This document shows, piece after piece, positions 5,093 through 60,359 of a DNA stretch of 64,000 nucleotides. Every line of letters begins with the position of its first letter. The first letter of the stretch is position 1. Position numbers and translations under genes: made by a program. Location of the stretch: NCBI GenBank assembly GCA_965140585.1, contig OZ223270.1, positions 128,001 to 192,000 on the forward strand, read 5' to 3'. The stretch comes from Spirochaetia bacterium (GTDB lineage: Bacteria; Spirochaetota; Spirochaetia; UBA9216). The notes below the pieces were generated by a model, which was not told the DNA's origin, did no database searches, and saw only the letters and a list, made by a program, of their open reading frames with translations.

Positions 5093-5312
5093 AAATAAAT
5101 CATCTCCATTTTTTTGCTTAGGCAGCCTTCAACTCTTATCTTACAATATTTTCCAAAGAATTTAATTCCTGTTTAAAAAGATTTCAACAAATTAATCCTT
5201 TTTATCGATACTTCTATTGAGGTTTATTCTATTTTTTAGGATTGTATAACTTAAAATTAGTTTTAATTGAAAAAACTTTTTATAATATCATTTTAATTAA
5301 ATTTTCAAACTT

Positions 5313-39888: not shown

Positions 39889-40194
39889 CTAAGAAGCTTT
39901 TATCTGAGGTATTCTTTCTAATTCGTAAGCGATTTTTTCTCTTTCTTTTCTTAGATCATATTCATCCTGAATCCCTAACCAAAAATCTGCAGAATTTCCA
40001 AAATATTTAGAAAATCTCAAAGCTGTATCTGCTGTTATCTTTCTATTGCCCTTTATTATCTGGGAAACCCTTGTGGCTGGTACATTGGTGTCTTTAGCTA
40101 ATCGATAAGCTGAAATATTCAAGGGAATGAGAAATTCTTCTAACAAAATCTCTCCAGGCGTTATTGTAGGTATTCTTTCCATATCTTCACCCAT
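39889..40194 (-). CDS. higA: HigA-family antitoxin
   Basis: TPGEILLEEFL...ITADTALRFSKYFG...FWL. Confidence 0.9.
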   Translation of the reverse strand: MGEDMERIPTITPGEILLEEFLIPLNISAYRLAKDTNVPATRVSQIIKGNRKITADTALRFSKYFGNSADFWLGIQDEYDLRKEREKIAYELERIPQIKAS

Positions 40195-40195
40195 G

Positions 40196-40477
40196 CTAAT
40201 GATAATCTGTTATTTCTACATCACTTGCAGAACCGTTACTCCAATGAAAGCATATTCTCCATTGATTATTTATTCTTATGCTATATTGGCCCTTCCTATT
40301 TCCAGTTAATTGTTCTAAATAATTTCCCGGAGGAACTCTTAAATCAATTACATCTTTCGCTCGATGAATCATGATAAGCTTTCTCAAATCTATTCTCTGA
40401 ATATCTTTAGGAAATCGTTTTGAATAAATTTCTTCCCAGATTTTTCTGGTTTCTTTATCTTTAAATGATTCAATCAC
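40196..40477 (-). CDS. higB: HigB (RelE-like) toxin
   Basis: GTG start; IESFKDKET...DLRVPPGNYLEQL...QYSIRINNQWRICF...DYH; toxin-first order. Confidence 0.9.
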   Translation of the reverse strand: MIESFKDKETRKIWEEIYSKRFPKDIQRIDLRKLIMIHRAKDVIDLRVPPGNYLEQLTGNRKGQYSIRINNQWRICFHWSNGSASDVEITDYH

Positions 40478-40558
40478 TAAAAAAATAATAACGCCTAACA
40501 TTATTAACGCCAAGAGTTAATATATTTTCGAATGTTAAAAAATCGAAGCCAACTACTA

Positions 40559-40683
40559 AAAAATCAAAAGTGAGAAACTTTTGATTTTTATACCTTAGAT
40601 GTAAAGGAACAATATTTTTGCAATTTATTGCTAAAATATTGTTCAAGTTAAAAAATCAGAGCGTACCGGCTCTGATTTTTTAA
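40559..40683. repeat. Three-hairpin intergenic element, copy A
   Basis: Stems 40559-40589, 40607-40644, 40648-40683; core ACCTTAGATGTAAA 40592-40605. Confidence 0.75.
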
Positions 40684-40710
40684 CACAATCCTAACAAATT
40701 TCTAACAATT
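40680..40710 (+). promoter_or_regulatory. Putative Pho box
   Basis: Three TAACA repeats at 11-bp period directly upstream of pstC. Confidence 0.6.
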
Positions 40711-40761
40711 CAAGAACGCTCTGCTAATAGTTTATACCTGCAAACTATTAGGAGATATATT

Positions 40762-41673
40762 TTGAAACAAAACTCTGATAACCAGAGAAAGATGCTTAAA
40801 GATATTGGCCGCAGAGCCGCACAGGAAAGAAGTGTTGAGATGATTCTTCTGGTCTGTGCGCTTGTTTCGGTTGTAAGCGTACTGTTCATATCGTTTTTCA
40901 TCTTTCAGAGAGGTCTTCCGCTTTTCAAGTCTGTCGGCGTCTTTGAGTTTCTGCTCGGAACTGACTGGTCACCTTCAAATGATACAAATCCTTCGTACGG
41001 AATACTTCCTTTTATTGTGGGATCGATATATGTAACCCTCGGCTCACTCGTACTGGCGGTTCCCATAGGCATTTTAACCGCTGTATTTATGGCTGAGATT
41101 GCAGGCACGAAGGTAGCAGACTTCATGAGAAGTGTTGTTCAGCTGCTTGCAGGAATACCCTCAGTCATTTATGGATTCTTCGGCGTTATAGTGATTTCAA
41201 AGTTCATACGTGAAACCTTCGGGGGTACCGGCTACAGCATGCTTTCGGGGTCCATCATCCTTGCAATCATGGTTCTTCCTACAATAATTAACATCACCGA
41301 GGTTTCTATAACTTCCCTTCCCCGAAACATCAAGGAAGGCTCACTTGCTCTCGGCGGTACAAGGTGGCAGACTATAATCAGGGTACAGATTCCGGCCGCT
41401 AAATCCGGAATAATTGCCGGGATTGTACTTGGTATGGGCCGGGCGCTTGGAGAGACAATGGCGGTTCTGATGGTTGCCGGTAATGCACCGATTATGCCGC
41501 AGGGACCTCTGTCCAAGGTGCGGACACTCACAATGAACATTGTAACCGATATGGGATACGCATCCGGAGATCATATGACGGCACTTTTCACAACGAGTAT
41601 CGTACTCTTCCTCTTCATCCTGATACTAAACCTTCTGGTCAACCTCCTGAAGGGCAAGGCGGAGGCCGTATAA
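40762..41673 (+). CDS. pstC: Phosphate ABC transporter permease PstC
   Basis: LLAGIPSVIYG, GMGRALGETMAV. Confidence 0.95.
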   Translation: MKQNSDNQRKMLKDIGRRAAQERSVEMILLVCALVSVVSVLFISFFIFQRGLPLFKSVGVFEFLLGTDWSPSNDTNPSYGILPFIVGSIYVTLGSLVLAVPIGILTAVFMAEIAGTKVADFMRSVVQLLAGIPSVIYGFFGVIVISKFIRETFGGTGYSMLSGSIILAIMVLPTIINITEVSITSLPRNIKEGSLALGGTRWQTIIRVQIPAAKSGIIAGIVLGMGRALGETMAVLMVAGNAPIMPQGPLSKVRTLTMNIVTDMGYASGDHMTALFTTSIVLFLFILILNLLVNLLKGKAEAV

Positions 41674-43322
41674 TGAATGTAACTTTTCAGGCAGAACCGG
41701 TAGATTCCAAAAATATTTTAAATGATATTCTGAAACGCGAGAAAAAAAAGGCTGAAACAAACTATATAAAAACCAACCGGATGAACAACCTTGCAACAGG
41801 GCTGCTCTGGGCAGCGGCTATAGTGACCTTCGGAATACTGGTTTATATTCTAGGATTCATCCTTTACCGCGGTTTCCGTTCAGACAATATCCTTGAACAG
41901 GATCACGTGTACATCAAGACAACTGAAACTCCCCTGCCCTGGCTTGAAGGCGATTCAGTTGTAATAGTCAACAAGGATGTCAGGATAAAGGAGATAAGCT
42001 ACTCCGATTTAAGCGGGCTTATCGGCGGTAAGCCGTCAAACTGGGGAAATATCAACGAACAGGACCTTGACGTTTTTCCCTATCTCCCGGATGGCGCCGA
42101 AGGCAAGACGGGAAAGAATATGACCTTTATGCCCTCAACTGCTGACATCATAAGTGCGGTAGCATCCCAAAAGGGCGGACTGGGAATAATTTCAGCGGAT
42201 AACGCCGAAACATCGGATTTATCTGACGTCAGAATCCTTCCGGTTATTCCCTTCTCAATTGCTGTTAACAGCTCGGTCCTTGAGATTCAGAATAATATAA
42301 AGATAAGGTTTACCGATGAAGACGGACTCAAGGCTCTTTTCAGCGGAAAGATTACAAACTGGCAGGACGCAGGCGGCATAGACCTGGCGGTGACACCAAT
42401 AATCCCTCCGGCCGGCAGTAAGGAATACGATGAATATCTGAGGCTTACAGGCCTTACGGCGAAGTCACTTCCTGCAAATGCAGTAAAAAGCACTTCGGAT
42501 ACCGACTATATTGAAAAACTCAACAGCACAAGCGGAGCGGTTGGTCTTGTGTTCACCGAAACAGCGGATGAGCTCAAACTGGATATTCTGAATTACCAGT
42601 ACCGGAAAACCGGAATGAACCTGCAGTGGTGGTTTCTCTTTGAAGAACCCAAGCGAGCTGGCCGTGTCGGCGGTATTTCATCGATTGTAGTTAACACGAT
42701 TTACATGGTGCTTCTGACAGTCCTGTTTTCAACCCCGATAGGCATAGGGGCAGCTGTTTACCTCACCGAGTATGCAAAGCAGGGAATACTGATAAAAATA
42801 CTGAGACTCGGAACAGAGACTCTGGCCGGTATTCCGTCAATCATCTTCGGTCTTTTCGGCTTCATAGTCTTTGTAGGATACATGCACCTGGGAATAGGGC
42901 TGCTTTCAGGAACGCTGACTCTGACGCTTATGATTCTGCCGACAATCATCAGAACAGCGGAAGAGGCAATAAAGGGTGTTCCGCAGTCGTTCAGGGCCGG
43001 AAGCCTTGCGCTTGGAGCCGGCAAGTGGCAGACAATATACAAGGTTGTAATACCAGCCGCAGCACCGGGAATACTCACCGGCGTAATCCTTGCAATCGGA
43101 CGTGCGGTCGGCGAAACAGCAGCCCTGCTTTTCACTATGGGCTTTGACTACCGGAGGGCAGAAAACCTTTCAACATCAGCCCGTGTCCTCTCAACCCATT
43201 TGTACCAGCTTGTCAAGGAAGGTATTTCCTTTGACCGGGCATTCGCAACAGCAACAATCCTTATAGTGATAATTCTTATTGTTAACGTTCTTTCTACAAG
43301 ACTCATCAGAAGGAAATACTGA
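41673..43322 (+). CDS. pstA: Phosphate ABC transporter permease PstA with large PstS-like periplasmic insertion
   Basis: C-terminal LAGIPSIIFG, GRAVGETAAL; insertion containing LFSGKITNWQDAGG. Confidence 0.9.
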   Translation: MNVTFQAEPVDSKNILNDILKREKKKAETNYIKTNRMNNLATGLLWAAAIVTFGILVYILGFILYRGFRSDNILEQDHVYIKTTETPLPWLEGDSVVIVNKDVRIKEISYSDLSGLIGGKPSNWGNINEQDLDVFPYLPDGAEGKTGKNMTFMPSTADIISAVASQKGGLGIISADNAETSDLSDVRILPVIPFSIAVNSSVLEIQNNIKIRFTDEDGLKALFSGKITNWQDAGGIDLAVTPIIPPAGSKEYDEYLRLTGLTAKSLPANAVKSTSDTDYIEKLNSTSGAVGLVFTETADELKLDILNYQYRKTGMNLQWWFLFEEPKRAGRVGGISSIVVNTIYMVLLTVLFSTPIGIGAAVYLTEYAKQGILIKILRLGTETLAGIPSIIFGLFGFIVFVGYMHLGIGLLSGTLTLTLMILPTIIRTAEEAIKGVPQSFRAGSLALGAGKWQTIYKVVIPAAAPGILTGVILAIGRAVGETAALLFTMGFDYRRAENLSTSARVLSTHLYQLVKEGISFDRAFATATILIVIILIVNVLSTRLIRRKY

Positions 43323-43325
43323 TTT

Positions 43326-44093
43326 ATGGAGAATACAATGACTGATAATAAACTGTCCGTTATGGACCTCGATTTCTTTTACGGAGATTTCAAGGCGCTG
43401 CACGGCATTTCAATGGAGATAGAGCAGAATAAGGTGACAGCCCTGATAGGCCCTTCAGGCTGCGGAAAGTCAACCTTCCTAAAAACCTTGAACCGGATGA
43501 ACGACCTTGTTGTCGGGTCAAAGGTAGACGGAACTATTCTTTATGACGGCGAGGATATCTACGGAAAGTATGATATAATTCAGCTTAGAAAGAAGATTGG
43601 AATGGTGTTTCAGAGCCCCAATCCCTTTGCAATGTCGATATTTGACAACATAGCCTACGGTCCCAGAATCCACGGGATAAAAAACCGTAAGGTTCTTGAT
43701 GAGATAGTTGAGAAAAGCCTTTCACAGGCGGCAATATGGGATGAGGTAAAGGACAGGCTTAACAAGCCGGCACTTGGACTTTCCGGAGGCCAGCAGCAGA
43801 GGCTCTGTATAGCCAGGGTTCTTGCTGTTGAACCTGATGTCATTCTTATGGATGAGCCTACAAGCGCCCTCGATCCGATATCAACATCAAGAATTGAGGA
43901 CCTGGTTGATGAACTTAAACAGGACTATACCATCGTAATAGTCACTCACAACATGCAGCAGGCGGGAAGGATTTCAGACTATACAGCCTTCTTTCTGCAC
44001 GGATACCTTGAAGAAATGGGACCGACAGAGCGTATCTTCTTCAATCCTGAAAGCAAAAAAACAGAAGATTATATATCAGGCCGATTCGGCTGA
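43326..44093 (+). CDS. pstB: Phosphate ABC transporter ATPase
   Basis: [29 protein letters not shown]. Confidence 0.97.
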
Positions 44094-44108
44094 TATCCGG
44101 AGTAAAAA

Positions 44109-44768
44109 ATGAGTAAACCGAGATTACATTTTTCAAATGAAATGACAAACCTTAACGATCAGATCCTTCTGATGGGTACATATGTTGAAGAGGCATTGAA
44201 GAAATCTATAGAGGCTCTGAAAAACCAGGACGAAGTTCTGGCTGATCAGGTAATAAACGAAGACGAAAAAATAAACATTATGGAAACAGCCCTGTTCGAC
44301 AAGGTTTCAATAATCCTTGCAACCGAACAGCCTGTAGCAACCGACCTGAGGCATCTGACCGGCGCCATCAAGATAATTACAGATCTTGAGCGGGCGGGCG
44401 ACTATGCTGTTCACATAGCAAAGGGTGCAAAGCGGCTTTCAAAAGAAAACTACATTGCTCCAATCCAGCAGATTCCTGAAGCGGGGGAAACGGCACGGGG
44501 AATGCTCAGGGATGCGCTTACAGCCTTTGTAAACATGGATGAAGAGCTTGCAAGAGATGTTGCTGCAAGGGATGATGCCCTTGATAAAATCCACAAGAAG
44601 CTTCTGAAAAAGATGCTGAAATATATGAATAAAGAAGATGAAGCCAATATCGAACAGGCTACAAACTTGATCTTTCTGGCAAGATTTCTTGAACGCCTCG
44701 GCGATCATGTAACCAATATCTGCGAATGGGTGGTTTATACAAAAACCGGCCATCATGTTGAATTATAG
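44109..44768 (+). CDS. phoU: Phosphate signalling protein PhoU
   Basis: QPVATDLR, DLERAGD, LERLGDH. Confidence 0.95.
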   Translation: MSKPRLHFSNEMTNLNDQILLMGTYVEEALKKSIEALKNQDEVLADQVINEDEKINIMETALFDKVSIILATEQPVATDLRHLTGAIKIITDLERAGDYAVHIAKGAKRLSKENYIAPIQQIPEAGETARGMLRDALTAFVNMDEELARDVAARDDALDKIHKKLLKKMLKYMNKEDEANIEQATNLIFLARFLERLGDHVTNICEWVVYTKTGHHVEL

Positions 44769-44780
44769 CAGGAGGTTGAA

Positions 44781-45470
44781 ATGCCCGGTGAAAAAATCCT
44801 TGTAATCGAGGATGAACAGGACATTAGAGAACTGATAGCCTTCAATCTTGAAAACGAAGGCTATAAAATTCTGAAAGCTGCTACCGGTATTGAGGGCCTT
44901 GAAAAGGCAAGAAAGCATGCGCCCGATCTGGTACTGCTTGATATAATGCTGCCTGACGTGGACGGCCTTGAAATATGTAAAAAACTAAAACGCGATGAGA
45001 CAACCTCCGATATTCCTGTAATTATGCTGACCGCAAAATCAGAGGATTCGGATATCATTTCAGGACTGGAGCTTGGAGCTGACGACTATATAACAAAACC
45101 CTTCAGCCCACGGGTCCTGCTTGCCCGTATAAGAACAGTACTCCGGAGGAACACCGACGGGGAAGATGACGGGAACCAGCTGATCCGGGTCCATGAAATA
45201 CAGATAGATATAAAAAAGCACGAAGTCCTCAGCAGCGAAGAAGATGTGAATCTTTCGGCAACCGAGTTTGCAATCCTCAGCCATCTCGCATCCAATCCGG
45301 GATGGGTGTTTTCAAGAAACCAGATAATTGACGCAGTACGCGGACAGAACTATCCGGTTACAGAGCGCTCTGTAGATGTACAGATTCTGGGAATCAGGAA
45401 AAAGCTCGGATCTCAGGGCAGATATATTGAAACCGTCCGCGGAGTCGGTTATCGTCTGAAGAGTGACTGA
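44781..45470 (+). CDS. phoB: PhoB/PhoP-like OmpR-family response regulator
   Basis: Receiver LDIMLP, KPFSP, wHTH ETVRGVGY; pst context. Confidence 0.88.
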   Translation: MPGEKILVIEDEQDIRELIAFNLENEGYKILKAATGIEGLEKARKHAPDLVLLDIMLPDVDGLEICKKLKRDETTSDIPVIMLTAKSEDSDIISGLELGADDYITKPFSPRVLLARIRTVLRRNTDGEDDGNQLIRVHEIQIDIKKHEVLSSEEDVNLSATEFAILSHLASNPGWVFSRNQIIDAVRGQNYPVTERSVDVQILGIRKKLGSQGRYIETVRGVGYRLKSD

Positions 45471-45471
45471 T

Positions 45472-45615
45472 CCAAATTTAAAACGCGGTTGGTTTTAAAT
45501 TTGGCTTTGAAGATTTTTGATGTTAAGTAAATATAAATACTTGAGTGAACCTATGCAAAAATCTTCATTTACATCCAAGGTAAGAATAATAAAAGTCGCT
45601 AACTTTTATTATTCT
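45472..45615. repeat. Three-hairpin intergenic element, copy B (inverted relative to A and C)
   Basis: Stems 45472-45504, 45508-45567, 45583-45615; core TTTACATCCAAGGT 45568-45581. Confidence 0.75.
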
Positions 45616-45641
45616 AAATTTTTCTTACAAAAAGGACACGA

Positions 45642-47411
45642 ATGAAAAAGCGCCCTCTATTCCGGCAGAGCTTTCTGGTACTGATGCTGATGATGCTCAT
45701 CGCGATAGTACCTATAGCCGTCTTCAACACCTATAACTTTAAAACCTTTTATTACAGTGAAACCGAAGAATACCTGAAGGAAAGCTGTATCCTGCTAAAA
45801 AATGTTTTTCCGCAGAGCCTTGCATCAACCGACATAGCGGGAATCGAGAAATTCGCGTACACGGCATCCAGCGAAACCGACATGCGTGTTACCATCATAA
45901 ACGAAAACGGACTCGTGCTGGCCGATTCCCAGAACGACCCTGACAGCATGAACAACCACGCAGACCGGCCGGAGGTCTCTGCAGCTCTTTCCGGAAACTA
46001 CGGGTCCTCAACCCGCAACAGCGCAACCATGTCTTTTGAAATGATGTATTCGGCCGTTCCGGTAAGCTTCAGTGATTCGACCAACGGTGCCATCAGGCTT
46101 GCACGTTCACTTGAAGACATCGACTCAAGATTGTCACTCATAAACCGGAGCGTTGTAATACTGAGCATCATTCTTTTTATAGCGGTCGGAGTTCTCAGCT
46201 ACATCCTTGCCGGCTGGGTAAGCCGGATAATCAATGAACTCAAGCAGACCGCGGCAATGTACGCGGCCGGTGATTTTTCAAAAAAGCTGTTTATTGAACG
46301 CCCTCAGGAAATTTCCGAACTCTCGGATGATATCAACTCGATGGGTATGCAGCTGCAGGATCGTATAAACAAGGTTGAAACACAGAAAAACGAGCTTCAG
46401 CTGATTCTCAACAATATGACAGAACCGGTTCTCTTCACCGACAGAAGGCTGCATATACTCAGGATTAATTCGGCCGCGGAAACGCTGTTTCATTTTAACG
46501 AAGAGAACGACAGAGGCAGAAGCATTCTTGAACTTTTCCGGAACTCGGATCTGAATAACTTCGCACAGAGTATGGTTGAGACAGGAACCTCGAAAACAGA
46601 AATTATCACCCTGGATCTTCCCCGACCTGCTCACCTTGAAATTCACGGAACCGTGGTTAAGGATGCCGAAGGGGAAGTAAGCGCCCTTCTGCTTGTAATG
46701 CACGACATCACCCGGATGAAACAGCTGGAACAGATGCGCAAGGATTTTGTAGCCAATGTATCACACGAACTTAAGACTCCGGTCACGATGATTAAGGGAT
46801 ATATTGAAACCCTGCTGGACAGCATGTCCCCGGAGGAAGGTGAAAATAACACCATTAAATTCCTGGGAATCATGGAGAAGCACTCTTCCAGAATCGAGGC
46901 TATTATCGATGACCTGCTTCTGCTCTCGGGTATAGAAAAAAATGACGGAAATGCTCCGCTTTTTGAAGAGATTCCTGCAATAGACCTGCTCACAAGCGCG
47001 GTTACCAGCTGCGAGCCCAGAGCCGAGGATAAAAATATAAAACTTAAAATGAACTGCCCTGAAAACATCATTCTGAGGGTTCACCCCCTGCTTGCTGAAC
47101 AGGCTGTAATAAACCTGATCGACAATGGAATTAAATACAGCGGAACTAATACCGAGATAAAGGTTTCTGTAAAACAGAATGATGAAGGCAAAACCTGTAT
47201 AAGTGTTAAGGACCAGGGCTGCGGAATATCGCAGGAAGATCAGGAACGGATTTTTGAAAGGTTCTACCGCGTAGACAAGGCGCGCAGCAGGGAATCAGGC
47301 GGTACAGGCCTGGGGCTGTCGATAGTCAAGCATATTGCCCTCAGCCACAACGGAAGCATCTCGGTTGAGAGCACTCCGGGAAAGGGCTCAACTTTTACTA
47401 TCTGCCTGTAG
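45642..47411 (+). CDS. phoR: PhoR-like sensor histidine kinase (HAMP, PAS)
   Basis: FVANVSHELKTP, NLIDNGIKY, RFYRVDKARSR..GGTGLGL. Confidence 0.9.
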   Translation: MKKRPLFRQSFLVLMLMMLIAIVPIAVFNTYNFKTFYYSETEEYLKESCILLKNVFPQSLASTDIAGIEKFAYTASSETDMRVTIINENGLVLADSQNDPDSMNNHADRPEVSAALSGNYGSSTRNSATMSFEMMYSAVPVSFSDSTNGAIRLARSLEDIDSRLSLINRSVVILSIILFIAVGVLSYILAGWVSRIINELKQTAAMYAAGDFSKKLFIERPQEISELSDDINSMGMQLQDRINKVETQKNELQLILNNMTEPVLFTDRRLHILRINSAAETLFHFNEENDRGRSILELFRNSDLNNFAQSMVETGTSKTEIITLDLPRPAHLEIHGTVVKDAEGEVSALLLVMHDITRMKQLEQMRKDFVANVSHELKTPVTMIKGYIETLLDSMSPEEGENNTIKFLGIMEKHSSRIEAIIDDLLLLSGIEKNDGNAPLFEEIPAIDLLTSAVTSCEPRAEDKNIKLKMNCPENIILRVHPLLAEQAVINLIDNGIKYSGTNTEIKVSVKQNDEGKTCISVKDQGCGISQEDQERIFERFYRVDKARSRESGGTGLGLSIVKHIALSHNGSISVESTPGKGSTFTICL

Positions 47412-47424
47412 ACTCAGAGACGGC

Positions 47425-48228
47425 TCAGAATACCAGAAAGCCGCCGTTTTTAAGAGTCTGCTTGTTATAGGGAAATTCGCTGCCGTCAAGGCTGGTACAG
47501 CTGCGGCCGGCACCCTCTACTACTGCATGGGCGGCGGCGGTGTCCCACTCCATTGTGGGGCTGAAGCGGGGATAGATATCGGCGGTTCCTTCTGCGATCA
47601 TGCAGAACTTGAGACTGCTTCCGGCTGTAATGATTTCAACAGAACTGCAGCCCTTTTCTTTTGCCCAGTCATTTACAAACTTGTCAAATTCTTCACTGCG
47701 ATGGGAACGGCTTCCTGCTGCAACAAGTACATCATCACGCCGGTTAATTGATTCATCCGGCAGCTGAACCGAATTCACGGCTTTTCCGTTTTTAACATCA
47801 GCGCGGAAACTACCGGTCGGCTCAGAACCGTAATAAACAACTCCGGTAACAGGAACATAGACAATACCGGCATAAGGCCGGCTGCTTTTCATAAGGGCTA
47901 TATTGACTGTAAACTCACCGTTCTTTTTTACAAATTCCTTGGTACCGTCCAGTGGATCTATCAGCCAGTAATAATCCCAATACTGTCTTTGCGTGTAAGG
48001 GGCAATATCTCCCTCTTCAGAAATGAGCGGGATGATTCCGCCTTCAACTTTTATCGTTTCAAGCCTGCTGCAGATGTACTCATGAGAAGCCTGATCGGCC
48101 CGGGTAAGCGGGGAATTATCCTCTTTCATTTCAACAGGAAAATCCCTGCTGTAAACATCAAGAATAAGTTCACCTGCATGAGCGCAGATTGAAACAAGGG
48201 TGTCGAAGATATTATTCAAATTTTCCAT
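47425..48228 (-). CDS. cysQ: 3'(2'),5'-bisphosphate nucleotidase
   Basis: SPLTRAD, SEE, IDPLDGTKEF, GSSLK, MEWDTAA; ATG at 48228 preferred. Confidence 0.93.
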   Translation of the reverse strand: MENLNNIFDTLVSICAHAGELILDVYSRDFPVEMKEDNSPLTRADQASHEYICSRLETIKVEGGIIPLISEEGDIAPYTQRQYWDYYWLIDPLDGTKEFVKKNGEFTVNIALMKSSRPYAGIVYVPVTGVVYYGSEPTGSFRADVKNGKAVNSVQLPDESINRRDDVLVAAGSRSHRSEEFDKFVNDWAKEKGCSSVEIITAGSSLKFCMIAEGTADIYPRFSPTMEWDTAAAHAVVEGAGRSCTSLDGSEFPYNKQTLKNGGFLVF

Positions 48229-48241
48229 AAATCGGGAAAAA

Positions 48242-48598
48242 TCAGTCTTCAAGCTCCATATAAGTTGCAATCTTCTCAAGTTTTCGCTCAACAAGAACTC
48301 TGACAGCCCCGGGAAGTCCCGCAGCCTTCATTTCATTAATAAAGTAGTTCTCGATATAGGCTCTGAGTTCATTAACATTTTCACTTTCAGCCTTGGCTTT
48401 TTCCACGGCCTTGGAAACATTTTCAAGCCCTAGAACTTCTCTTTTCAGAAGGCTGGTATTCTCTAGAAAAACATATTCGGTTATTTCATGTTCATCAAAC
48501 CGGCGTTTCATATTTTCTTCATTGAATTCAATGTCATATATCAGATCTTCAAGCTCGATTTTTAGTATCTCGAGATATTTCTTCATTTTGTTGTCCAT
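48242..48598 (-). CDS. Hypothetical helical protein
   Basis: GGAGG SD, 118-aa ORF in tandem with cysQ. Confidence 0.7.
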   Translation of the reverse strand: MDNKMKKYLEILKIELEDLIYDIEFNEENMKRRFDEHEITEYVFLENTSLLKREVLGLENVSKAVEKAKAESENVNELRAYIENYFINEMKAAGLPGAVRVLVERKLEKIATYMELED

Positions 48599-48668
48599 AT
48601 TTAAACCCTCCGTTTAAAGTATATATACACTGTTATCTGATCGCAATAAATGATAATATACAGATTAT

Positions 48669-49907
48669 ATGAATGCGCCGAGATTGTCTGCATTTTTTTT
48701 CAGTTTAGCCTTACTTCTTGCCTACCCTGCTTCAGCATCCGGAGCTGATAATTCCGGAACCCTCATCATCAAAAACAGAGAACTTACCAGGGTTATAGTC
48801 TCCACCGACAACATCACCGACAAGGGGCTTGCTCTTTTACTAAACGGAACAGGCGAACTGAAGGCTGTCTCAGAAAGTCAGTCATATACCGCCTCTTTTT
48901 CCTCGGGCAGCAGGCCGGTAAAAATCTCACTGTACCCCTCTCTGCTGGGATTTTTCCCTGATAACGTTGAGATACAGAGCTCCGGTACAGAGTTTGATCT
49001 GCTCTCATCAGAGGTATTCGATATTGACGGTGAAACACCGCTGGATGCCGATATTGGCCATATAATTTTCTCGGATTTTTCTCCGCGCGGGGGACATGAC
49101 TGGGAAGTGTACCGCTGGAACCTCTACCCGGACATACTGATTTTCGATACCGAGAACTATGAAGCACAGGCAAGACTCTTTAAGAGGCTTGCATTCTTCG
49201 TTGAAAAGCCGGGTTTCGTGGGAACCATTGTATCAAACGAGGGTCTCGAAGGCCGTCACGGCTGGAATGCACATGATTACCGGCCCGAAGATCTGGCCGA
49301 TTTTTTCAACAAGGCTATGGAAACACCGGAGATACTGAACACCGAAGAGATATACCTCCGCGACCTGCTTGTATCCGAAGGTATTTTGATAGATTTGAAT
49401 GGAACATACAGAGCAGGAAAGGGAGCTGTGCTGTCAGTTTCAAGGGAATCACTGCCTGACTGGCGCTACCGTTTTTTAACTCATGAATGTCTGCACGGAA
49501 TTTTCTTTACCGATCCTGATTTCAGGGCGCAGTCAGAGAGGATTTTCTTCAGCATGCAGCCGGATGAAATTACCTTCTGGAAAAAACTTCTGGATTACCG
49601 TGGATACGACGTGAGCAATGACTACCTGCTGGTAAACGAGTTTATGGCTTACATACTGCAGCAACCCTTTGAGGATATCAACGACTATTTTAAAACCTTT
49701 CTCTATGTACGCATGACCGCGGCCAGACCCTATGAAACAGGTTTTGTCGAAACTTTTGAAAGGAACTATCCGGATTCTTTTATCAATTCAACCGAAAACA
49801 TGTCCGCTCTGCTGTACAGCAAATGCGGGAGGACAAGCGGCCACCTATCCAATCTAATCCCGGACAGCATGGGGGATGGTTTCTTCAATTTGTTTCCGGT
49901 ATACTGA
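48669..49907 (+). CDS. Secreted hypothetical protein with HExxH motif
   Basis: Signal peptide; THECLHG with downstream NEFMAY. Confidence 0.7.
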   Translation: MNAPRLSAFFFSLALLLAYPASASGADNSGTLIIKNRELTRVIVSTDNITDKGLALLLNGTGELKAVSESQSYTASFSSGSRPVKISLYPSLLGFFPDNVEIQSSGTEFDLLSSEVFDIDGETPLDADIGHIIFSDFSPRGGHDWEVYRWNLYPDILIFDTENYEAQARLFKRLAFFVEKPGFVGTIVSNEGLEGRHGWNAHDYRPEDLADFFNKAMETPEILNTEEIYLRDLLVSEGILIDLNGTYRAGKGAVLSVSRESLPDWRYRFLTHECLHGIFFTDPDFRAQSERIFFSMQPDEITFWKKLLDYRGYDVSNDYLLVNEFMAYILQQPFEDINDYFKTFLYVRMTAARPYETGFVETFERNYPDSFINSTENMSALLYSKCGRTSGHLSNLIPDSMGDGFFNLFPVY

Positions 49908-50003
49908 TACAGCAATAGTGTTAAAAAAAAGTAAAAAGATTGAATTTCGAAATTATCGGGAATATAATTACGACCTAATCTGTCAATCTGGAGATAGCTG
50001 ATA

Positions 50004-50939
50004 ATGTCTGCACCAAAAAAATGGATACCGGCCCGCAAAAGTCATCTGCTCTACTATGATGATATTCCGCTGTATTACCGAACACCAAGCGGAAATATAA
50101 CATTGTACAAGCCGGCAGGAATGTCGTTTACCCACGAAAGCCTGGAAAGAAAATATGCAATCGACGAGTTCTTCATACATCCCGACAACAGACTGGAAAG
50201 TATTGAAGCAGCTCAGCGCGGATTTCAAAAGAAACTTGAAACAACCAAAGACATCACAACAGTAAAGGATTCCCTTGTTGATCTTGTAGAGGAAACACTG
50301 GCAGCCCCAAGGGCCGGAGGTCTTAAACGGGCTCCGAATACGGTTAACCATCTTATCGATGGATTTTCATTACAGCCCAATGTCCTCAAGAATTTCGCAA
50401 GAATGTCCTTCAACGACTACACAACCGCCCTGCATTCAGTCAATGTTATGGCTCTGACAGTGGGATACTGTTACTACATTTCGCTTACAGAAGAGGAAAC
50501 CAAAAAACTCGGCCTGGCAGCCCTGCTTCATGATGTTGGAAAGACCGAGGTTCCGAATTACATCCTCAAGGCCAGCCGAAGACTCACTGATGAGGAATTT
50601 GACAAGATAAAATCTCATACGACTCTCGGCTTTGAGATCCTTCAGCTTTATTCGGATGAGGATTTCTCCGAGATAGCACTTGCCAGCAAGGAGCACCATG
50701 AAAAGCTGGACGGCTCCGGGTATCCTGAAGGAAAAACCGACATATCATATATGGGAAGGGTTCTGGCTATTATCGATTGTTATGAAGCTATTACCAATGA
50801 CGACAGGCCTTACAGGACAGCGCTGAGCCCGCTTAACGCGCTTGAGCTGATAAAGAAGGATGTTGATCAGGGAAAACTTGACAGAGCCATATTCAAGGAT
50901 TTTGCCTACAGCCTTACGAACTTTAAAAATAAGGCTTAA
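50004..50939 (+). CDS. HD-GYP domain protein (putative c-di-GMP phosphodiesterase)
   Basis: LLHDVGK, HHEKLDGSGYP, RPYR. Confidence 0.9.
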   Translation: MSAPKKWIPARKSHLLYYDDIPLYYRTPSGNITLYKPAGMSFTHESLERKYAIDEFFIHPDNRLESIEAAQRGFQKKLETTKDITTVKDSLVDLVEETLAAPRAGGLKRAPNTVNHLIDGFSLQPNVLKNFARMSFNDYTTALHSVNVMALTVGYCYYISLTEEETKKLGLAALLHDVGKTEVPNYILKASRRLTDEEFDKIKSHTTLGFEILQLYSDEDFSEIALASKEHHEKLDGSGYPEGKTDISYMGRVLAIIDCYEAITNDDRPYRTALSPLNALELIKKDVDQGKLDRAIFKDFAYSLTNFKNKA

Positions 50940-50950
50940 AAATAAAAAAA

Positions 50951-50979
50951 GGGGGGGCAGCCGCAAAAAAGCTGCCCCC
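50951..50979. terminator. Probable terminator between convergent genes
   Basis: GGGGGCAGC...GCTGCCCCC stem with an A-tract on the left. Confidence 0.7.
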
Positions 50980-50986
50980 TGATATT

Positions 50987-51433
50987 CTAAAATGCGCCCA
51001 GCTGGCAGCTGTGTATCTTTATCGACATCAAATCACAGACAGCCGCAGCCTGAGCCTTGGTAGAGCCGGCTTTTTCCGCAGCCGTCCAGAGAGTACGGCA
51101 GCTGATACCGCCGTTCCGCGAGTCCTCCTCAATTATTTCTTTGAGTACATCCACATCATCCTCAGAAGGCAGGGTTTTATCGACCTCATCCTTATCTTTG
51201 CCGAACAGTCCAAGCTGACAGCCTATGATTCTGATCTCAAGAAGATCCATGTTCCTGCCGGTTTCAGCCGGGCTCACACCCAGTTCCGACGCAATCCGGT
51301 GGGCTGTAGTACAGCTTAACCGTCCATTTTCGGCTTCTGCCTTCAGCACTTCAGCAATCCGCTCATTCAAGGCTGATTTGTCCGGATGTTTTCCGGCGTA
51401 ATTTCCTTCGTCCTGATGCATTTCATCCTCCAT
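50987..51433 (-). CDS. Hypothetical protein with internally duplicated Cys-containing domain
   Basis: Two repeats ending in CQLGLF / CQLGAF. Confidence 0.7.
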   Translation of the reverse strand: MEDEMHQDEGNYAGKHPDKSALNERIAEVLKAEAENGRLSCTTAHRIASELGVSPAETGRNMDLLEIRIIGCQLGLFGKDKDEVDKTLPSEDDVDVLKEIIEEDSRNGGISCRTLWTAAEKAGSTKAQAAAVCDLMSIKIHSCQLGAF

Positions 51434-51434
51434 G

Positions 51435-54400
51435 TCAGAGATCCCAGCTGTTTTCAACGAAACTGCCTTCTTCTCCGTTTTTAGTTACTGTAATGAATGT
51501 ATCTATTTCCTGTTTAAGCTCCTGTACGTGTGAAATCACACCTACGGTTCTGTTTTCATGTTTAAGTGATTTAAGGCTGTCAAAGACAAGTTCAAGAGAC
51601 TCCCTGTCCAGAGAACCGAAGCCCTCATCGAGAAAGAAGAACTCAGCCTTTCCCTTCTCCATGTTGTCGGCAAGAGCGAGTGCAAGGGAAAATGCCGCCT
51701 GAAAAGTCTGTCCGCCGGAAAGGGTCTTTACTGATCTTGTTTTTCCGTCATTGAGATAGTCCCGTATGATGAAGTTATTTGATTCATCAAGCTCAATCCG
51801 AAGTGATTCACGTGTCAGTATACGAAAGCGGCTGTTTGCAGAGTTACAGAGTTCCTTGAGGTAGACTGTCGCAACATAATCGACAAACTTGTTTCCCTGA
51901 AGCATAAACTTCAGCAATTTCAGATTTTCAGCCCTGGTATCAAGCTCCTTTTTCTGCTTCAAAAGCTCAGTCTTTTTTTCAAGATCGGCAGCAGCCCTTT
52001 TAAGCTCGGATTCATAACGCCCCGCATCACCTGACAGCCTCTGAACCTCCTGCTTCAGTTGAGTATTACGCATTTTTTCGGCCTGAAAGGCATCCTCATC
52101 AAAGCTTTCTCCCAGGGTAAGTTCTTTAAGATGCGCAATCCTTGCCGAAACCTCTTGAAAGGCTTTCTCAAATTCCTGAACCCGGCTTCGAATTACCTCT
52201 ATTTCAGAAGCGCGGCTTAGAATTGCAGAAACCTCTTCGATTGAATCGGCCTTTTTCTCTTCAAGCATTTCATTTATCTTCTTTCTGAGTTCCGATATTG
52301 CAGCCTCTGTTTCAGAGAGCCTGGCCGACAGTTCTGATTTTTTGGAGTCAAGCCCGGCAGCAAGGGCCGTCAGTGATTCACGTTTTTCAGAAAGCCTCAT
52401 GTAATTATCCGAAATATTTTTTATGTTTTCATCATTTTCTCTCTGCAGCTTCTGAAGCACTTCCGTTCCGGAAGCGGAATGCACTTTTATGAAACCGGAA
52501 TCAATTCTTTCTTCGATACTTTCAATTCGGGCTGCTATTGCTGACCGGCTGTTCCTGAGCTCGGCAAGTTTTCCTGCGGCAGTCTCAGTTGCGAAACGAA
52601 GTTTCTCCATGTCAGCATTAATCCCGGACTGCGCACGTCTGATATCTTCCGTCCGTTTCTGATTATCAAGAAACCTGCGGTATTCCTGCCGGAAACCATC
52701 AGGATCAGAAGAATCGAACCTGTCGGAACTGAATGAAGCTTCAAAATCAAGGATAGCTGCCGATGCAGCAGCTGCTTCCCCGCGGCATTCGGCCGCAGAG
52801 GTCTCTGCAGATCGGAGGGAAGCACTCAGAGCTGTCAACTCAGTTTTAAGCCTTTCAAGAGCCGCTTTTCGCCTGCTCAGGGAATCTGCGGCTCCGGTCA
52901 GGGTATCTCCTCCGGATTGGGAGATTCCGGCGGGTGCCGGATGTTCGGTAGAACCGCAGAGTGGACAGGGTTTACCATCCTGAAGAGATGAACTGAGTCT
53001 TGCCATCTCATTCCGGACAGCCTCTTCTTTCTGCTTCTCCCGCAGAGCAAGATCCTCCCTGGACAGCCTCTCCTCAGCATCGGAGACAGCAGACAGCGCC
53101 TCATCTACTGAATGGATATCCGGAAATTTAAAGCCGGAGTTCTCAGCAGCTTCCCCGGAAATCATATGAAAAAACTCATCTTCATTCTGTTTCTGCCGAT
53201 TTACAACCGCAGCCAGTCTTTCAAGCACAGCTTTCTCAGTATCCTTAAGAGCATCCATCTTTGAATACCACTCAGAAAGACCGCTCATCTGCTCGGCAGT
53301 ACCGGACTGCTGCAGTCCTTCAAGTTCGCTGTTCAAATTATCAAGCTCAGATTTAAATGCAGCAATTTTTTCAGCTGATTCCGCCGGAAATTTCTCAGCT
53401 GTCGATATATTAGAATCAAGCTGTTTAAGTTCAGCCCTGAAGCTCTGAAGCTCCAGGAGACCCTTAACCCATTCCGTTTTCTTTTTATAGTCATCAAGCT
53501 GTTCGTACTGCGCTCCTGCTTTTTCAAAAGCGGTATTCAGCTCAATCCGTTCCGATGTAATTTTCTGTATTTCTTTCTCAGCTTCTGAAAGCTGGGCAGC
53601 AGACCGATTCTCTTGTTTTTCGAGGTATGCAAGACGCTCAAGATCCGATTTAAAATATTCAACATAGATCTGATAAGCGGAAATGAGCTTTTTTTCTTCA
53701 TTGATATCAGAAGCTCTGGAGTCGAGCTCCTTTTTCTGAATCTCGTATCCCGAGAGCTCTGCGAAGCGTTCGGCCAGGCCCTTCATGCGCTCAAAGGCTT
53801 CACTGCTTTTATTAAAATCAACCTGTGCTTTCTCCAGCAGAGCGATGTTCGCTTCAGCCTCTACCTTCAGTTTTTCCAAATCCTCTTTGGAGATACTCTC
53901 AAGGCCGCTGAGGGCACCGTCAATTCCAGCAGCTTCCTTGCTGGTGCGGGAAGCAAGTATAGAAGCTCTGCCGAAAAGGTCAAAGCGACCGAGGCTGAAA
54001 AGATCCTTGAGCATGCTGGTTCGCTCGTTTTTTCCCAGATGAAGAAACTCCTGAAACTGCCCCTGCGGAACAATCACCGCGCGGCGGAAGCTGTTGTAAT
54101 TCATTCCAAGGATGCCCTCAGCTGAAACTTCATTAGTTTTATCGAAAAGAGGAATCCAGCTACCATTATCATCTCGATAAGCCGACCGCTCCGGCGTTTC
54201 AATTTTATCGAAAGTCTTCTTATTTCTTTTAACATCGAAGGTAAACCGGTAACGGCAGCCTTCATGACCGAAAATAAAATCAATACTCATAGTAGACGAT
54301 CTGAGATTCATCATATTATAAGTTCGGTTAGGCTTATCAAGTCTTACAATCTCACCGTACAGGACGAAGGTTATCGCCTCAAGGATAGCCGACTTTCCGC

Positions 54401-54515
54401 TGCCGACACTTCCGAATATACCAAACAGATCAGCTTCGGTGAGCCTTGTAAAATCAATCTCAGTCCTGCTGCGGTAGGAGTAAACACCCTCAAGAATAAG
54501 TTTTTCAGGTCTCAT
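51435..54515 (-). CDS. sbcC: SbcC (Rad50-like) ATPase
   Basis: GSVGSGKS, VPQGQF, CPLCGS zinc hook, LSGGQ, FLDEGFGSLD. Confidence 0.95.
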   Translation of the reverse strand: MRPEKLILEGVYSYRSRTEIDFTRLTEADLFGIFGSVGSGKSAILEAITFVLYGEIVRLDKPNRTYNMMNLRSSTMSIDFIFGHEGCRYRFTFDVKRNKKTFDKIETPERSAYRDDNGSWIPLFDKTNEVSAEGILGMNYNSFRRAVIVPQGQFQEFLHLGKNERTSMLKDLFSLGRFDLFGRASILASRTSKEAAGIDGALSGLESISKEDLEKLKVEAEANIALLEKAQVDFNKSSEAFERMKGLAERFAELSGYEIQKKELDSRASDINEEKKLISAYQIYVEYFKSDLERLAYLEKQENRSAAQLSEAEKEIQKITSERIELNTAFEKAGAQYEQLDDYKKKTEWVKGLLELQSFRAELKQLDSNISTAEKFPAESAEKIAAFKSELDNLNSELEGLQQSGTAEQMSGLSEWYSKMDALKDTEKAVLERLAAVVNRQKQNEDEFFHMISGEAAENSGFKFPDIHSVDEALSAVSDAEERLSREDLALREKQKEEAVRNEMARLSSSLQDGKPCPLCGSTEHPAPAGISQSGGDTLTGAADSLSRRKAALERLKTELTALSASLRSAETSAAECRGEAAAASAAILDFEASFSSDRFDSSDPDGFRQEYRRFLDNQKRTEDIRRAQSGINADMEKLRFATETAAGKLAELRNSRSAIAARIESIEERIDSGFIKVHSASGTEVLQKLQRENDENIKNISDNYMRLSEKRESLTALAAGLDSKKSELSARLSETEAAISELRKKINEMLEEKKADSIEEVSAILSRASEIEVIRSRVQEFEKAFQEVSARIAHLKELTLGESFDEDAFQAEKMRNTQLKQEVQRLSGDAGRYESELKRAAADLEKKTELLKQKKELDTRAENLKLLKFMLQGNKFVDYVATVYLKELCNSANSRFRILTRESLRIELDESNNFIIRDYLNDGKTRSVKTLSGGQTFQAAFSLALALADNMEKGKAEFFFLDEGFGSLDRESLELVFDSLKSLKHENRTVGVISHVQELKQEIDTFITVTKNGEEGSFVENSWDL

Positions 54516-55772
54516 TCATCATCCTCCCCGAGCGCAGAAAGCTCACCAAAAAGCGTCATCAGTGCTTCATCTGGAGGACTTCCCTTCACTGCCTCAAAAT
54601 AGGATGAAAAAAGTTCCGGTACGGATTTACCAAGATCCGGAAGGCTTTCCGAAGACTGCGTGCCGATGCCTTCATCAATCTCAAGCTCAGGAATCAAAGC
54701 AGTAATACCCGGGTGCAGGCTGTACAGCATCTTCCGCTCATCGGCGCTTATCCATGACTCGCAGCGGACGATAAGCTCAACATAGCAGTCCTGGTTTTCC
54801 TTCAGCCAGGCTTCGGCTTCACTGATTCCGGGAAACCGCTTTCTGAGAATCCGCTTTCCCGATCTAACAGGGATTTTTTCAACCACGGCTTTTGCGCCGG
54901 GCTTAGCATCAATAAGTACAGCATACTTCTGCTGGTTTTCCTCGCTGAGTCCGAAAGCAAGCGGACTGCCTGAGTACACTGCAGGGGCTCCGGACGGCGT
55001 GTTAATCTCAGAGAAGCGATGAAGATGCCCGAGGGCTGTATACTGAATCTGCGGAGGCACCAGAGCGGCGTCAATCATTTCAAGCCCGCCGGGATGAAGG
55101 ATTGAACGCTCTCCCTCAGGTTCGGGATTCTCCGGCAGTTCTTCACTGAAAAGCGGTCCGATCTCCGAGCCTGCACTCATAAACAGGTGTGCTGCAAGAA
55201 TATTTACAGCCTTATCATCACAGGTACTTATCAGCAAGCTCCTTCCAGAGCTGTCCGAGAACCTCTGAAATTTTCTGTTCACGGTCTTCAGCACCGAGAT
55301 ATCTTCGAAGCCTGTTTTCATTCGCATAGGCTGTAGTAATGATCCGTGCCTTTTCACCGCCGGCAGTTTCTACTTCAAGGATTCCTCGATCGGGAAAGCT
55401 GATATGTGTTCCGCATTCGAGTACTGTCTCTTTTTTCTGCATCTCGGGGTAGCCCACAAAGAAAATACCGCATTCAGCGGCGAGGGGGTCCGGAGCCTCG
55501 ATGCGGTCTGGTGAATCATGGTTGCCCGCAATAGCAATTACCGGCCGTCTGCCGTCATCGGAAAGTTTTTTCAGCTCCCGGTAAAGCAGTTCGGCAGCTT
55601 CAACCGGAGGGTTAAAGGTATCAAAAAGATCACCTGCAACAATAACCAGCGATACATCATTCTGTTCCGCAATTTGCTTTATCTCTTCGAGGACCTCTTT
55701 CTGTTCATCTATCCTGCTGTAATCTCCAAGTCTGGCTCCGAGGTGCCAGTCCGACGTATGTAAAATCTTCAA
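54512..55772 (-). pseudogene. sbcD: SbcD (Mre11-like) nuclease split by a one-base frameshift near 55222
   Basis: HTSDWHLG, AGDLFD, GNHD in 55218-55772; ALGHLH, YSGSP in the next frame. Confidence 0.85.
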
Positions 55773-55798
55773 TAGGTGCTCCGGATTTTTTCAATTAG

Positions 55799-55947
55799 GG
55801 AAAATCAAAAATCGGGGATTTTTGATTTTCCGACCTTAATGTAAATGAAGAAAATTTTACAAGCTGAACTAAATCAGGAATTTGAATATTTATGTAAAAT
55901 TTTGCTTCTGAACATCTTTCAAAACTAACCAAGTCTTGAAAGATGTT
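55799..55947. repeat. Three-hairpin intergenic element, copy C
   Basis: Stems 55799-55831, 55847-55908, 55911-55947; core ACCTTAATGTAAA 55833-55845. Confidence 0.75.
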
Positions 55948-56032
55948 ACATTATACCTTTATTTTTTCCTTTCTGTGAATAAATGATTTATAAAGATGTA
56001 TTTATGGATGTCACAAAAATCGAGGTAATCAG

Positions 56033-56770
56033 ATGATAGAAATCAATGAAATCAGTAAAAGCTATTCAAAGGGCACGGTTAAAGCGGTCGACGGCCTGAA
56101 TCTCACAGTTGAACCGGGCCAGATTTTCGGTTTTCTCGGCCCCAACGGAGCAGGAAAATCAACAACAATTAAAATGCTTGCAGGCCTGCTGAACCCTGAC
56201 ATCGGAAAGCTTAAACTCTGCGGGATCGATATCGTGCAAAAACCCATTGAGGCAAAGAAGCTTATCGGATACGTACCGGATGAACCGGTATTCTATGACA
56301 AAATGAGCGGCCTAACCTTTCTCAAGTTCATTGCTGATATTTATGACTGCGATGAAAAACAGAGAGAAGCAGCCCTTGGCACAGCAGCTGAGTTCGGTCT
56401 AGAAGACAAGCTTTCCGAGCTAATCTCATCCTACTCTCACGGGATGAAGCAGAAACTTTCAATAACCGCAGCCCTCATGCATGAACCTGAAGTGTTTATA
56501 CTCGATGAGCCTATTTCAGGACTCGATCCCCAGTCGGCCTTCGTCTTAAAAACAAAAATGAGGGAACTCTGCGATCTGGGCAAAACGGTATTCTTCTCAA
56601 CCCATGTAATGGAAGTAGCCGAAAGAATCTGCGACCGGGTCGGAATAATTAGCCACGGAAAGATCAGGGCACTCGGCCGGATGGATGAGATTAAGACCGG
56701 AGCACAACCCGGCGATACTCTCGAAAAAATATTCCTGGAGCTTACAAATGAAAACAGCAGCACTGATTAA
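56033..56770 (+). CDS. ABC transporter ATP-binding protein
   Basis: GPNGAGKST, YSHGMKQK, LDEP. Confidence 0.92.
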   Translation: MIEINEISKSYSKGTVKAVDGLNLTVEPGQIFGFLGPNGAGKSTTIKMLAGLLNPDIGKLKLCGIDIVQKPIEAKKLIGYVPDEPVFYDKMSGLTFLKFIADIYDCDEKQREAALGTAAEFGLEDKLSELISSYSHGMKQKLSITAALMHEPEVFILDEPISGLDPQSAFVLKTKMRELCDLGKTVFFSTHVMEVAERICDRVGIISHGKIRALGRMDEIKTGAQPGDTLEKIFLELTNENSSTD

Positions 56771-59397: not shown

Positions 59398-59413
59398 TCT
59401 TATTTCTCCGCCT

Positions 59414-60289: not shown

Positions 60290-60359
60290 GTATCTAAAAA
60301 TATTGCTTTACCACCTCTCCGGTCAACGAAAAAAGATGAAATATCTGTTAAAATGAAGC

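Follow-up and report, generated by a model that had tools for sequence, protein, structure and literature searches.

Bacterial MITEs, which are miniature transposable elements with inverted repeats, include Correia/CREE in Neisseria, RUP in pneumococcus and ERIC/MITEEc1 in enterobacteria. Other palindromic repeats, the repetitive extragenic palindromes (REPs) and the bacterial interspersed mosaic elements (BIMEs), are found in enterobacteria and pseudomonads, where they are associated with RAYT enzymes; they form mosaics of palindromes and linkers, and REPs lying between cistrons stabilize the upstream mRNA. HUH/Y1 enzymes of the IS200/IS605 type carry out insertion next to a fixed short target, which is not duplicated. 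A different strategy is described in passages of a report on IS1272, a member of the IS1182 family, which is said there to target and replace stem-loops and to leave no target-site duplication (PMC5678879). As for the Spirochaetes, a prokaryotic MITE survey describes their genomes (Leptospira, Sediminispirochaeta, Treponema) as exceptionally well supplied with MITEs, giving an average of 145 conserved MITEs for each genome (PMC11602168). The present analysis concerns three structured intergenic elements in a stretch of 64,000 nucleotides (nt) from a Spirochaetia bacterium (GenBank assembly GCA_965140585.1, contig OZ223270.1, positions 128,001 to 192,000 of the forward strand), which is called the window throughout. 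The three elements are diverged copies of a small non-coding repeat that has spread in the genomes of uncultured spirochaetes, most likely by transposition; this makes them a probable genome parasite rather than a ribozyme or a riboswitch.

The elements lie at 40559-40683 (element 1, + strand), 45472-45615 (element 2, - strand) and 55799-55947 (element 3, + strand) and share a common layout: a first hairpin, an invariant ACCTT(R)RATGTAAA junction, a second hairpin with a GAA..TTC base and a third hairpin. Both this placement and the arm sequences quoted in an earlier reading of the DNA, made from its letters and called here the sequence-only reading, agree with the DNA. In the 64-kb window, the exact junction is found only at 40592-40605 (+), 45568-45581 (-) and 55833-55845 (+), all other matches requiring at least one mismatch; by our own arithmetic, the chance expectation for an exact 12-base motif is about 0.01 per variant per 128 kb. 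A covariance model built from the three copies, which had been proposed as a check, was obtained from their hairpin 1 and junction, and the entire window was searched with it after the filters had been switched off. The three elements score 77-81 bits (E about 1e-17 in the window search), while the hits at ranks 4-9 (15.3-31.4 bits) and the rows at 12.1 and 11.2 bits come from these elements too, being their reverse strands or their third hairpins; no further copy is present in the window, where the best match elsewhere reaches 12.4 bits (E 1.1).

Members of the same family were found outside the window by a single scan of 185,579 species genomes with a motif composed of the T-run of hairpin 1, the junction and GAA. 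The scan returned 88 loci, 21 of which are labelled as spirochaetes; since all 88 were picked by motif, every one of them scores something with the model. There are 14 model hits of at least 38 bits, with a clear score gap below them, and all come from four metagenome-assembled genomes (MAGs), assigned to Spirochaetia, Spirochaetaceae (two) and Spirochaetales. Folding and reading of the loci revealed the full five-part layout at 12 loci outside the window, all of them in the four spirochaete MAGs. Decayed forms are also present, namely two truncated copies (loci L084 and L022), a solo palindrome at 3037-3075 of L046 and a fragment at 4716-4749 of L010, and one more copy in L046 is interrupted by the contig end. 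The 34-nt fragment extends from the last part of hairpin 1, through a junction altered at one base, into the beginning of hairpin 2. Downstream of it, at a distance of about 10 nt, is the ribosome-binding site of an MFS transporter gene (4770-6134), and it overlaps with the last part of the glycoside hydrolase open reading frame (ORF) that comes before this gene. No match to the L010 copy was obtained in a plasmid collection by sensitive BLASTN. One of the MAGs, CAXXYH01, is a close relative, about 90% identical to window positions 45282-61280 in reverse orientation, and it has orthologues of elements 2 and 3; its block orthologous to element 1 is not among the loci of the motif scan, indicating that either the motif has changed or the element is absent.

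Copies in the same genome are very similar, with identities of 93-96% in CAXXYH01, 90-97% in JAQQAK01 and 95% in JAISQV01; identity between subfamilies is 50-80%, and elements 1 and 2 of the window are the most isolated. The larger genome-wide family anticipated by the sequence-only reading is confirmed only in part: the repeat is dispersed in four other spirochaete genomes, and the strict motif gives 5 copies, not hundreds, in the two megabase contigs of the relative. Among the loci from other bacteria, L060 was rejected as a member, consisting of a GC-rich bidirectional terminator between convergent genes followed by the motif by chance, and L050, L007, L016, L020, L006, L002 and L036 do not display the three-hairpin layout; the remaining 62 loci were assessed by their low model score or by the lack of a listed match, not individually. 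Full-text literature searches, which did not extend to comparing the sequences of the MITE census (PMC11602168), returned no description of the element.

The ends of these copies, which are 115-160 bp long and non-coding, provide evidence of mobility. Nine copies keep GAGGC..GCCTC tips, the left 16 nt matching the reverse complement of the right 16 at 10-15 positions. In 7 of these 9 copies the 4 nt immediately outside the tips are identical on the two sides (ATAA, ACTT twice, ATTA and AATT three times); of the remaining two, one has a 3/4 match and the other a 3-nt repeat displaced by one base. As a control, the left flank of one copy was compared with the right flank of another, which gives a match in 8 of 72 pairs, and offsets of 1-4 nt give no match in nine. 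The 4-mers differ between near-identical copies of one genome; thus, they belong to the target, are duplicated on insertion and lie outside the element. Indeed, near-identical units are found at different loci with the duplications outside both terminal palindromes, which indicates that the unit, here abbreviated as P1-X-P3 (P1 and P3 being the end palindromes, X the junction with hairpin 2), moves as one piece. The insertion sites are AT-rich intergenic DNA with unrelated genes alongside, and both orientations occur. The data show a family with near-identical copies within a genome, inverted-repeat ends and a 4-nt duplication at most of the young copies. The proposal of a miniature mobile element, which was one of those made in the sequence-only reading, is upheld by the dispersed family, the within-genome subfamilies of 90-97% identity, the terminal inverted repeats and the 4-nt flanking repeats.

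It is thus fairly probable that the elements are MITE-like mobile repeats of 115-160 bp with palindromic ends, belonging to an uncultured Spirochaetia clade and moved by a DDE-type enzyme. A full element is composed of five parts. The first is a palindrome of about 35 bp, the outer arm of which is the left terminal inverted repeat with the tip GAGGC; it is followed by the invariant junction of 13-14 nt, by a variable internal hairpin with a GAAG..CTTC base, by a spacer of 2-4 nt and by a second palindrome of about 37 bp, whose outer arm is the right terminal inverted repeat with the tip GCCTC. A DDE-type transposase encoded elsewhere would bind the element ends, a 4-bp staggered cut would be made in the target, and the whole unit would then be inserted. 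The copies of the window may be older insertions, or derive from older subfamilies, and this would account for their tips and duplications being no longer clear.

The comparison with MITEs shows both similarities and differences. Like MITEs, the elements are small, non-coding, intergenic and multi-copy, with subfamilies within a genome, and they possess terminal inverted repeats, a short target-site duplication, stable hairpins, and truncated and solo derivatives. Size and lack of coding capacity (MITEs range from about 50 to 800 bp), inverted repeats of at least about 10 bp, the short duplication and the near-identical copies at unrelated sites are all as expected for this class; an autonomous element with the same ends, also typical of it, was not encountered in the window and the 88 loci. 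Conversely, and differently from MITEs, each end of the element is a complete palindrome, so that three local hairpins are formed instead of one long hairpin, and the ends vary with compensating changes, whereas the internal, asymmetric junction of 13-14 nt is invariant. The duplication is 4 nt long and AT-rich, and no parent insertion sequence was identified in the window and the 88 loci.

Each window element folds into three near-perfect hairpins and an unpaired stretch of 15-17 nt holding the junction. The individual parts are as follows.

40559..40589 (+): element 1, hairpin 1, with 13-bp arms and a 5-nt loop
40592..40605 (+): element 1, junction ACCTTAGATGTAAA, invariant and unpaired in the fold
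40607..40644 (+): element 1, hairpin 2, with the GAA..TTC base
40648..40683 (+): element 1, hairpin 3, with 15-bp arms and the loop GTACCG
45583..45615 (-): element 2, hairpin 1, 26 nt from the phoR start codon and identical in the orthologue at locus L072
45568..45581 (-): element 2, junction ACCTTGGATGTAAA, identical in the orthologue
45509..45566 (-): element 2, hairpin 2, with an 11-bp stem and a 36-nt loop
45472..45504 (-): element 2, hairpin 3, with 13-bp arms and CAACC in the loop, beginning 1 nt past the phoB stop codon
55799..55831 (+): element 3, hairpin 1, with 15-bp arms
55833..55845 (+): element 3, junction ACCTTAATGTAAA, with a single R instead of two, the form found in most family copies
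55847..55908 (+): element 3, hairpin 2
55911..55947 (+): element 3, hairpin 3, with TAACC in the loop

For the element strand, the fold energies of elements 1, 2 and 3 are -51.3, -40.7 and -46.8 kcal/mol; the corresponding values for the opposite strand are -47.7, -42.1 and -51.0 kcal/mol. Hairpin 1 and the junction have a mean column identity of 82% among the three window copies. In hairpin 3 an apical motif is conserved, consisting of AAAAC, the loop yAACC and GTTTT; the loop contains yAACC in most copies and ACC in 15 of 15, and the apical AAAAC..GTTTT is also conserved in hairpin 1. In element 1, the outer bases of hairpin 1 and the end of hairpin 3 are inverted repeats of each other at 10 of 10 positions. 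In some folds the junction pairs with bases upstream of it; this pairing was discarded, since it uses the variable 4-mers and is not conserved. A small protein was rejected as well: the only open frame seen, one of 27 codons in element 3, is interrupted in the other copies, and no small ORF is conserved across the family.

Pairs were counted over the three helices in an alignment of 15 full copies, from the window and from outside. Despite a misaligned 3' half of element 1, 89.4% of the cells are paired, and 26 of the 46 pairs change on both sides; none of 500 shuffles reaches the observed percentage of pairing, the covariation score or the counts of two-sided changes, whether taken over pairs or over cells, and sliding the partner columns by 1-3 positions lowers pairing to 33-57%. 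The sequence-only reading was therefore right in stating that the stems differ, pairing is kept and the junction is conserved, and its case becomes stronger with 15 members; two points need correcting, as the sequence conservation of hairpin 1 had been understated (82% mean identity together with the junction) and hairpin 3 has a conserved apical motif as well. As to the type of pairs, 551 of 626 cells are Watson-Crick and 7 are G-U, and the changed cells comprise 94 altered on both sides versus 5 on one side. The near absence of G-U pairs, the few one-sided changes and the equal energies of the two strands together are the signature of a DNA palindrome and not of an RNA fold, suggesting that the constraint on the end palindromes acts at the level of double-stranded or hairpin DNA and not of RNA.

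Comparison of the orthologous stretch (window 45282-61280 versus loci L072 and L008) revealed that elements 2 and 3 are present in both genomes. In element 2, 8 of the 9 differences from the orthologue are at the top of the hairpin 2 stem or in the loop. Over the two orthologous sites, and excluding hairpin 3 of element 3 from the count, stems and junction differ at 5 of 201 positions, versus 9 of 53 for loops and spacers (Fisher p = 3.5e-4); these values have to be read considering that identity is also 85-96% in other intergenic DNA of the same stretch and 70-92% at third codon positions. The excluded hairpin 3 behaves differently: in bases 55909-55947, 16 of 39 differ from the orthologue, and 14 of 15 pairs are kept in both genomes, whereas the flanking intergenic DNA, 26 nt on one side and 85 nt on the other, is 100% and 96.5% identical, respectively. 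This hairpin looks as if it had been replaced as a whole, and not by point mutation.

Several of these observations weigh against a selfish element moved by a DDE-type enzyme. The avoidance of stems and junction by substitutions at a fixed locus is not predicted by selfish mobility. The best conserved part is the internal asymmetric junction and the ends are variable, the reverse of a usual MITE; mobility explains neither the invariant junction nor the preservation or compensation of the stems at orthologous sites. In the window itself the terminal inverted repeats are weak in elements 2 and 3, and a clean 4-nt duplication is absent from all three copies, element 3 having ATTA near both ends but out of register. 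The 4-mers of the outside copies are of few kinds (AATT three times, ACTT twice), so that a strong target preference, or their being part of the element, could inflate the duplication signal. Finally, no transposase gene bounded by these tips was found in the window or in the 88 loci as an autonomous partner.

A reading that takes up some of these points, though a rather doubtful one, is that the family represents a new structural type, with exchangeable stem-loop ends recognized by shape and the junction acting as a sequence-specific handle; its route of movement would be related to the stem-loop targeting of the IS1182 family, and certain copies that are now fixed, for instance that in the phoB-phoR gap, may have become host mRNA structures. 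Recognition by shape would account for the Watson-Crick covariation and for the clean hairpin swap between orthologues. That the end palindromes are exchangeable modules is suggested by this swap, by one copy in L046 that carries a hairpin-3-type loop at the hairpin 1 position, and by the solo palindrome.

The same three observations support the main rival to a DDE-type mechanism, a structure-dependent variant which appears unlikely. According to it, the element is a modular P-X-P arrangement acting as DNA structure, in which the end palindromes are exchangeable and either P or X moves by targeting or replacing stem-loops, as proposed for IS1272; as a corollary, P1 and P3 would have originated as a duplicated or replaced target hairpin. 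The resemblance between hairpins 1 and 3 of one element would be in line with this origin, and duplication of the whole hairpin is one of the possible outcomes mentioned for IS1272 in the passages cited above (PMC5678879). As in IS1182 and IS1272, palindromes are found at or by the element ends and a hairpin has been cleanly replaced in element 3; in addition, the window contains a degenerate IS1182-family element with similar GC-rich palindromes at both sides. However, the whole P1-X-P3 units are found at separate loci with 4-nt duplications outside both palindromes, and the loops of hairpins 1 and 3 differ consistently across genomes, which simple duplication of a target hairpin would not predict. 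Unlike IS1272, for which target hairpins are unrelated and reportedly no duplication is left, the palindromes here show homology from one locus to another and move along with the unit, and the ends of the IS1182 remnant have only 8-11-nt words in common with the elements.

A host function at the RNA level is a further alternative, and quite an unlikely one: the elements would be cis-acting mRNA structures, such as a stabilizer or attenuator between phoB and phoR or 5' leaders of the pstC and ABC operons, or else a repeated small RNA gene. The flanking genes named in the sequence-only reading (higB/pstC, phoB/phoR and sbcD/ABC) are indeed those present. The order is HigB-like toxin, HigA, element 1, pstC-pstA-pstB-phoU-phoB, element 2 (antisense) and phoR; element 3 has sbcD on one side and an ABC ATPase gene on the other. 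The pst-pho cluster contains two of the three window copies, and, including the L010 fragment, which directly precedes a ribosome-binding site, 8 of 13 scorable copies point to the start of the next gene, at 18-174 nt. The preservation of stems and junction at orthologous sites, where the loops change, is also what a functional RNA would show. Against this, the other 5 of the 13 scorable copies, element 2 included, either point towards the 3' end of a gene convergent with them or lie antisense to the genes on both sides (two more copies are unscorable), and the neighbouring genes share no common function, the 19 neighbouring proteins examined around the copies being unrelated housekeeping ones. 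Rfam gave no match over the whole window at the gathering score; in 40300-56200, at E up to 10, nothing meaningful emerged, the only match touching element 1 being to a microRNA model at 19.8 bits, where the gathering score is 180. A promoter or terminator function was rejected too: in 40000-56500 there are 22 sigma-70-like and 22 terminator-like sites, compared with shuffle values of 22.7 and 16.9, only weak sites of either kind, and few of them, touch the elements, and no T-runs follow the AT-rich hairpins 1 and 3. To these points the scarcity of G-U pairs, the equal stability of the two strands and the lack of a conserved small ORF have to be added. Thus, the structured RNA or ribozyme envisaged by the sequence-only reading finds no support, given the absence of Rfam matches, the almost pure Watson-Crick covariation, the equal folding of both strands and the mixed orientation.

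Movement of a single-stranded DNA hairpin by a HUH/Y1 enzyme, of the REP/BIME-RAYT or IS200/IS605 type, had been the other mechanism put forward, and it turns out to be very improbable. Near-perfect hairpins, conserved asymmetric loops, a conserved single-stranded junction and almost pure Watson-Crick pairing are indeed what DNA hairpins of this kind would display. A mosaic of palindromes and a conserved, non-palindromic linker recalls BIMEs, as do the solo units and the intergenic positions, including those between cistrons of an operon; with palindrome elements derived from IS200/IS605, the family shares similar sub-terminal hairpins at both ends and a short single-stranded motif near the hairpin foot. 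Enzymes of this group, however, make no target-site duplication and use a constant short target, whereas in this family the 4-mers at the flanks occur in duplicate and vary from one near-identical copy to the next, unlike the fixed tetra- or pentanucleotide of IS200/IS605-derived elements. Unlike REPs, moreover, the palindromes have no GTAG-type head, their feet being GAGGC, GGGAA, AGAAT or AAAAA, and the copy number is apparently low. The linked RAYT, TnpA or recombinase genes for which a search had been recommended were not seen, as no recombinase or HUH gene is present among the 19 neighbours and no HUH gene among the window ORFs scanned. Lastly, chance groupings of AT-rich terminator-like hairpins have a negligible probability: many hairpins do arise in AT-rich intergenic DNA, and locus L060 combines an ordinary bidirectional terminator with a chance motif, but three exact junctions in 64 kb, scores of 77-81 bits versus a background of 12, and 12 further full copies with the same five-part order refute this explanation.

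Some features of the neighbouring genes deserve mention in their own right. The HigB-like toxin/HigA antitoxin pair (39889-40513, - strand) is directly upstream of element 1 and is transcribed away from it. The phosphate transport operon (40762-45470) begins at pstC, with no pstS gene upstream; its PstA (41673-43322) is unusually long, with 549 amino acids, the permease domain occupying residues 305-547 and a weak match to the PstS family being found at residues 192-292. The sbcD gene (54512-55772, - strand) is broken up into two ORFs that overlap each other, one at 55218-55772 and one at 54512-55357. In the related MAG, sbcD is a single intact ORF of 419 amino acids (L008, 5513-6772), which does not have the base at window position 55223; thus, the window sbcD contains either a frameshift or a sequencing error.

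Remnants of insertion sequences were also found, both in the window and beside one of the outside copies. The degenerate IS1182-family insertion sequence occupies 24512-25723 of the window; its ORF (24566-25180) encodes a DUF772 domain and is 40-46% identical to annotated IS1182-family transposases, and the downstream part of the gene is broken into short frames. The similar GC-rich, terminator-like palindromes on its two sides (GGGGCTGACT..AGTCAGCCCC) fit the stem-loop targeting described for the family in the cited passages (PMC5678879). It was rejected as a relative of the three-hairpin elements, the words in common being 8-11 nt long and no related transposase being present in the loci. 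The remnant is included in the first 30,000 nt of the window, where GC content is 26-40%, compared with 40-49% in the rest; this region contains a polysaccharide-synthesis cluster, with many glycosyltransferases, a flippase, acyltransferases, a sugar transferase and an export protein, and it may be a horizontally acquired surface-polysaccharide island. The second remnant is at locus L022 of JAQQAK01, where an IS30-type element of 450 bp (136-585), which carries an internal deletion and a fused ORF of 108 amino acids, comes directly after the truncated three-hairpin copy; the ORF contains an HTH_38 domain and matches IS30-family transposases, with no NCBIfam hit. IS30 was discarded as the parent, since this remnant has inverted repeats of its own of about 31 bp (136-166 and 555-585) and is not followed by the right half of the three-hairpin element; it represents a separate insertion sequence, inserted into the element copy or next to it.

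The assignment to a mobile repeat family has consequences for how these loci are annotated, since it keeps three structured intergenic elements from being misfiled as ribozyme, riboswitch or small-RNA candidates. The family is now defined by its boundaries, tips, duplication length and host clade, and it can therefore be masked or annotated in spirochaete MAGs; such repeats break assemblies, and one copy does end a contig. With covarying palindromic ends, an invariant internal junction and one exchanged hairpin, the family also constitutes a compact natural test case for the upkeep of DNA palindromes. For the bacterium itself, two of the copies reside in the phosphate-regulon cluster, and, if their hairpins affect the transcripts, the ratio of phoB to phoR could change.

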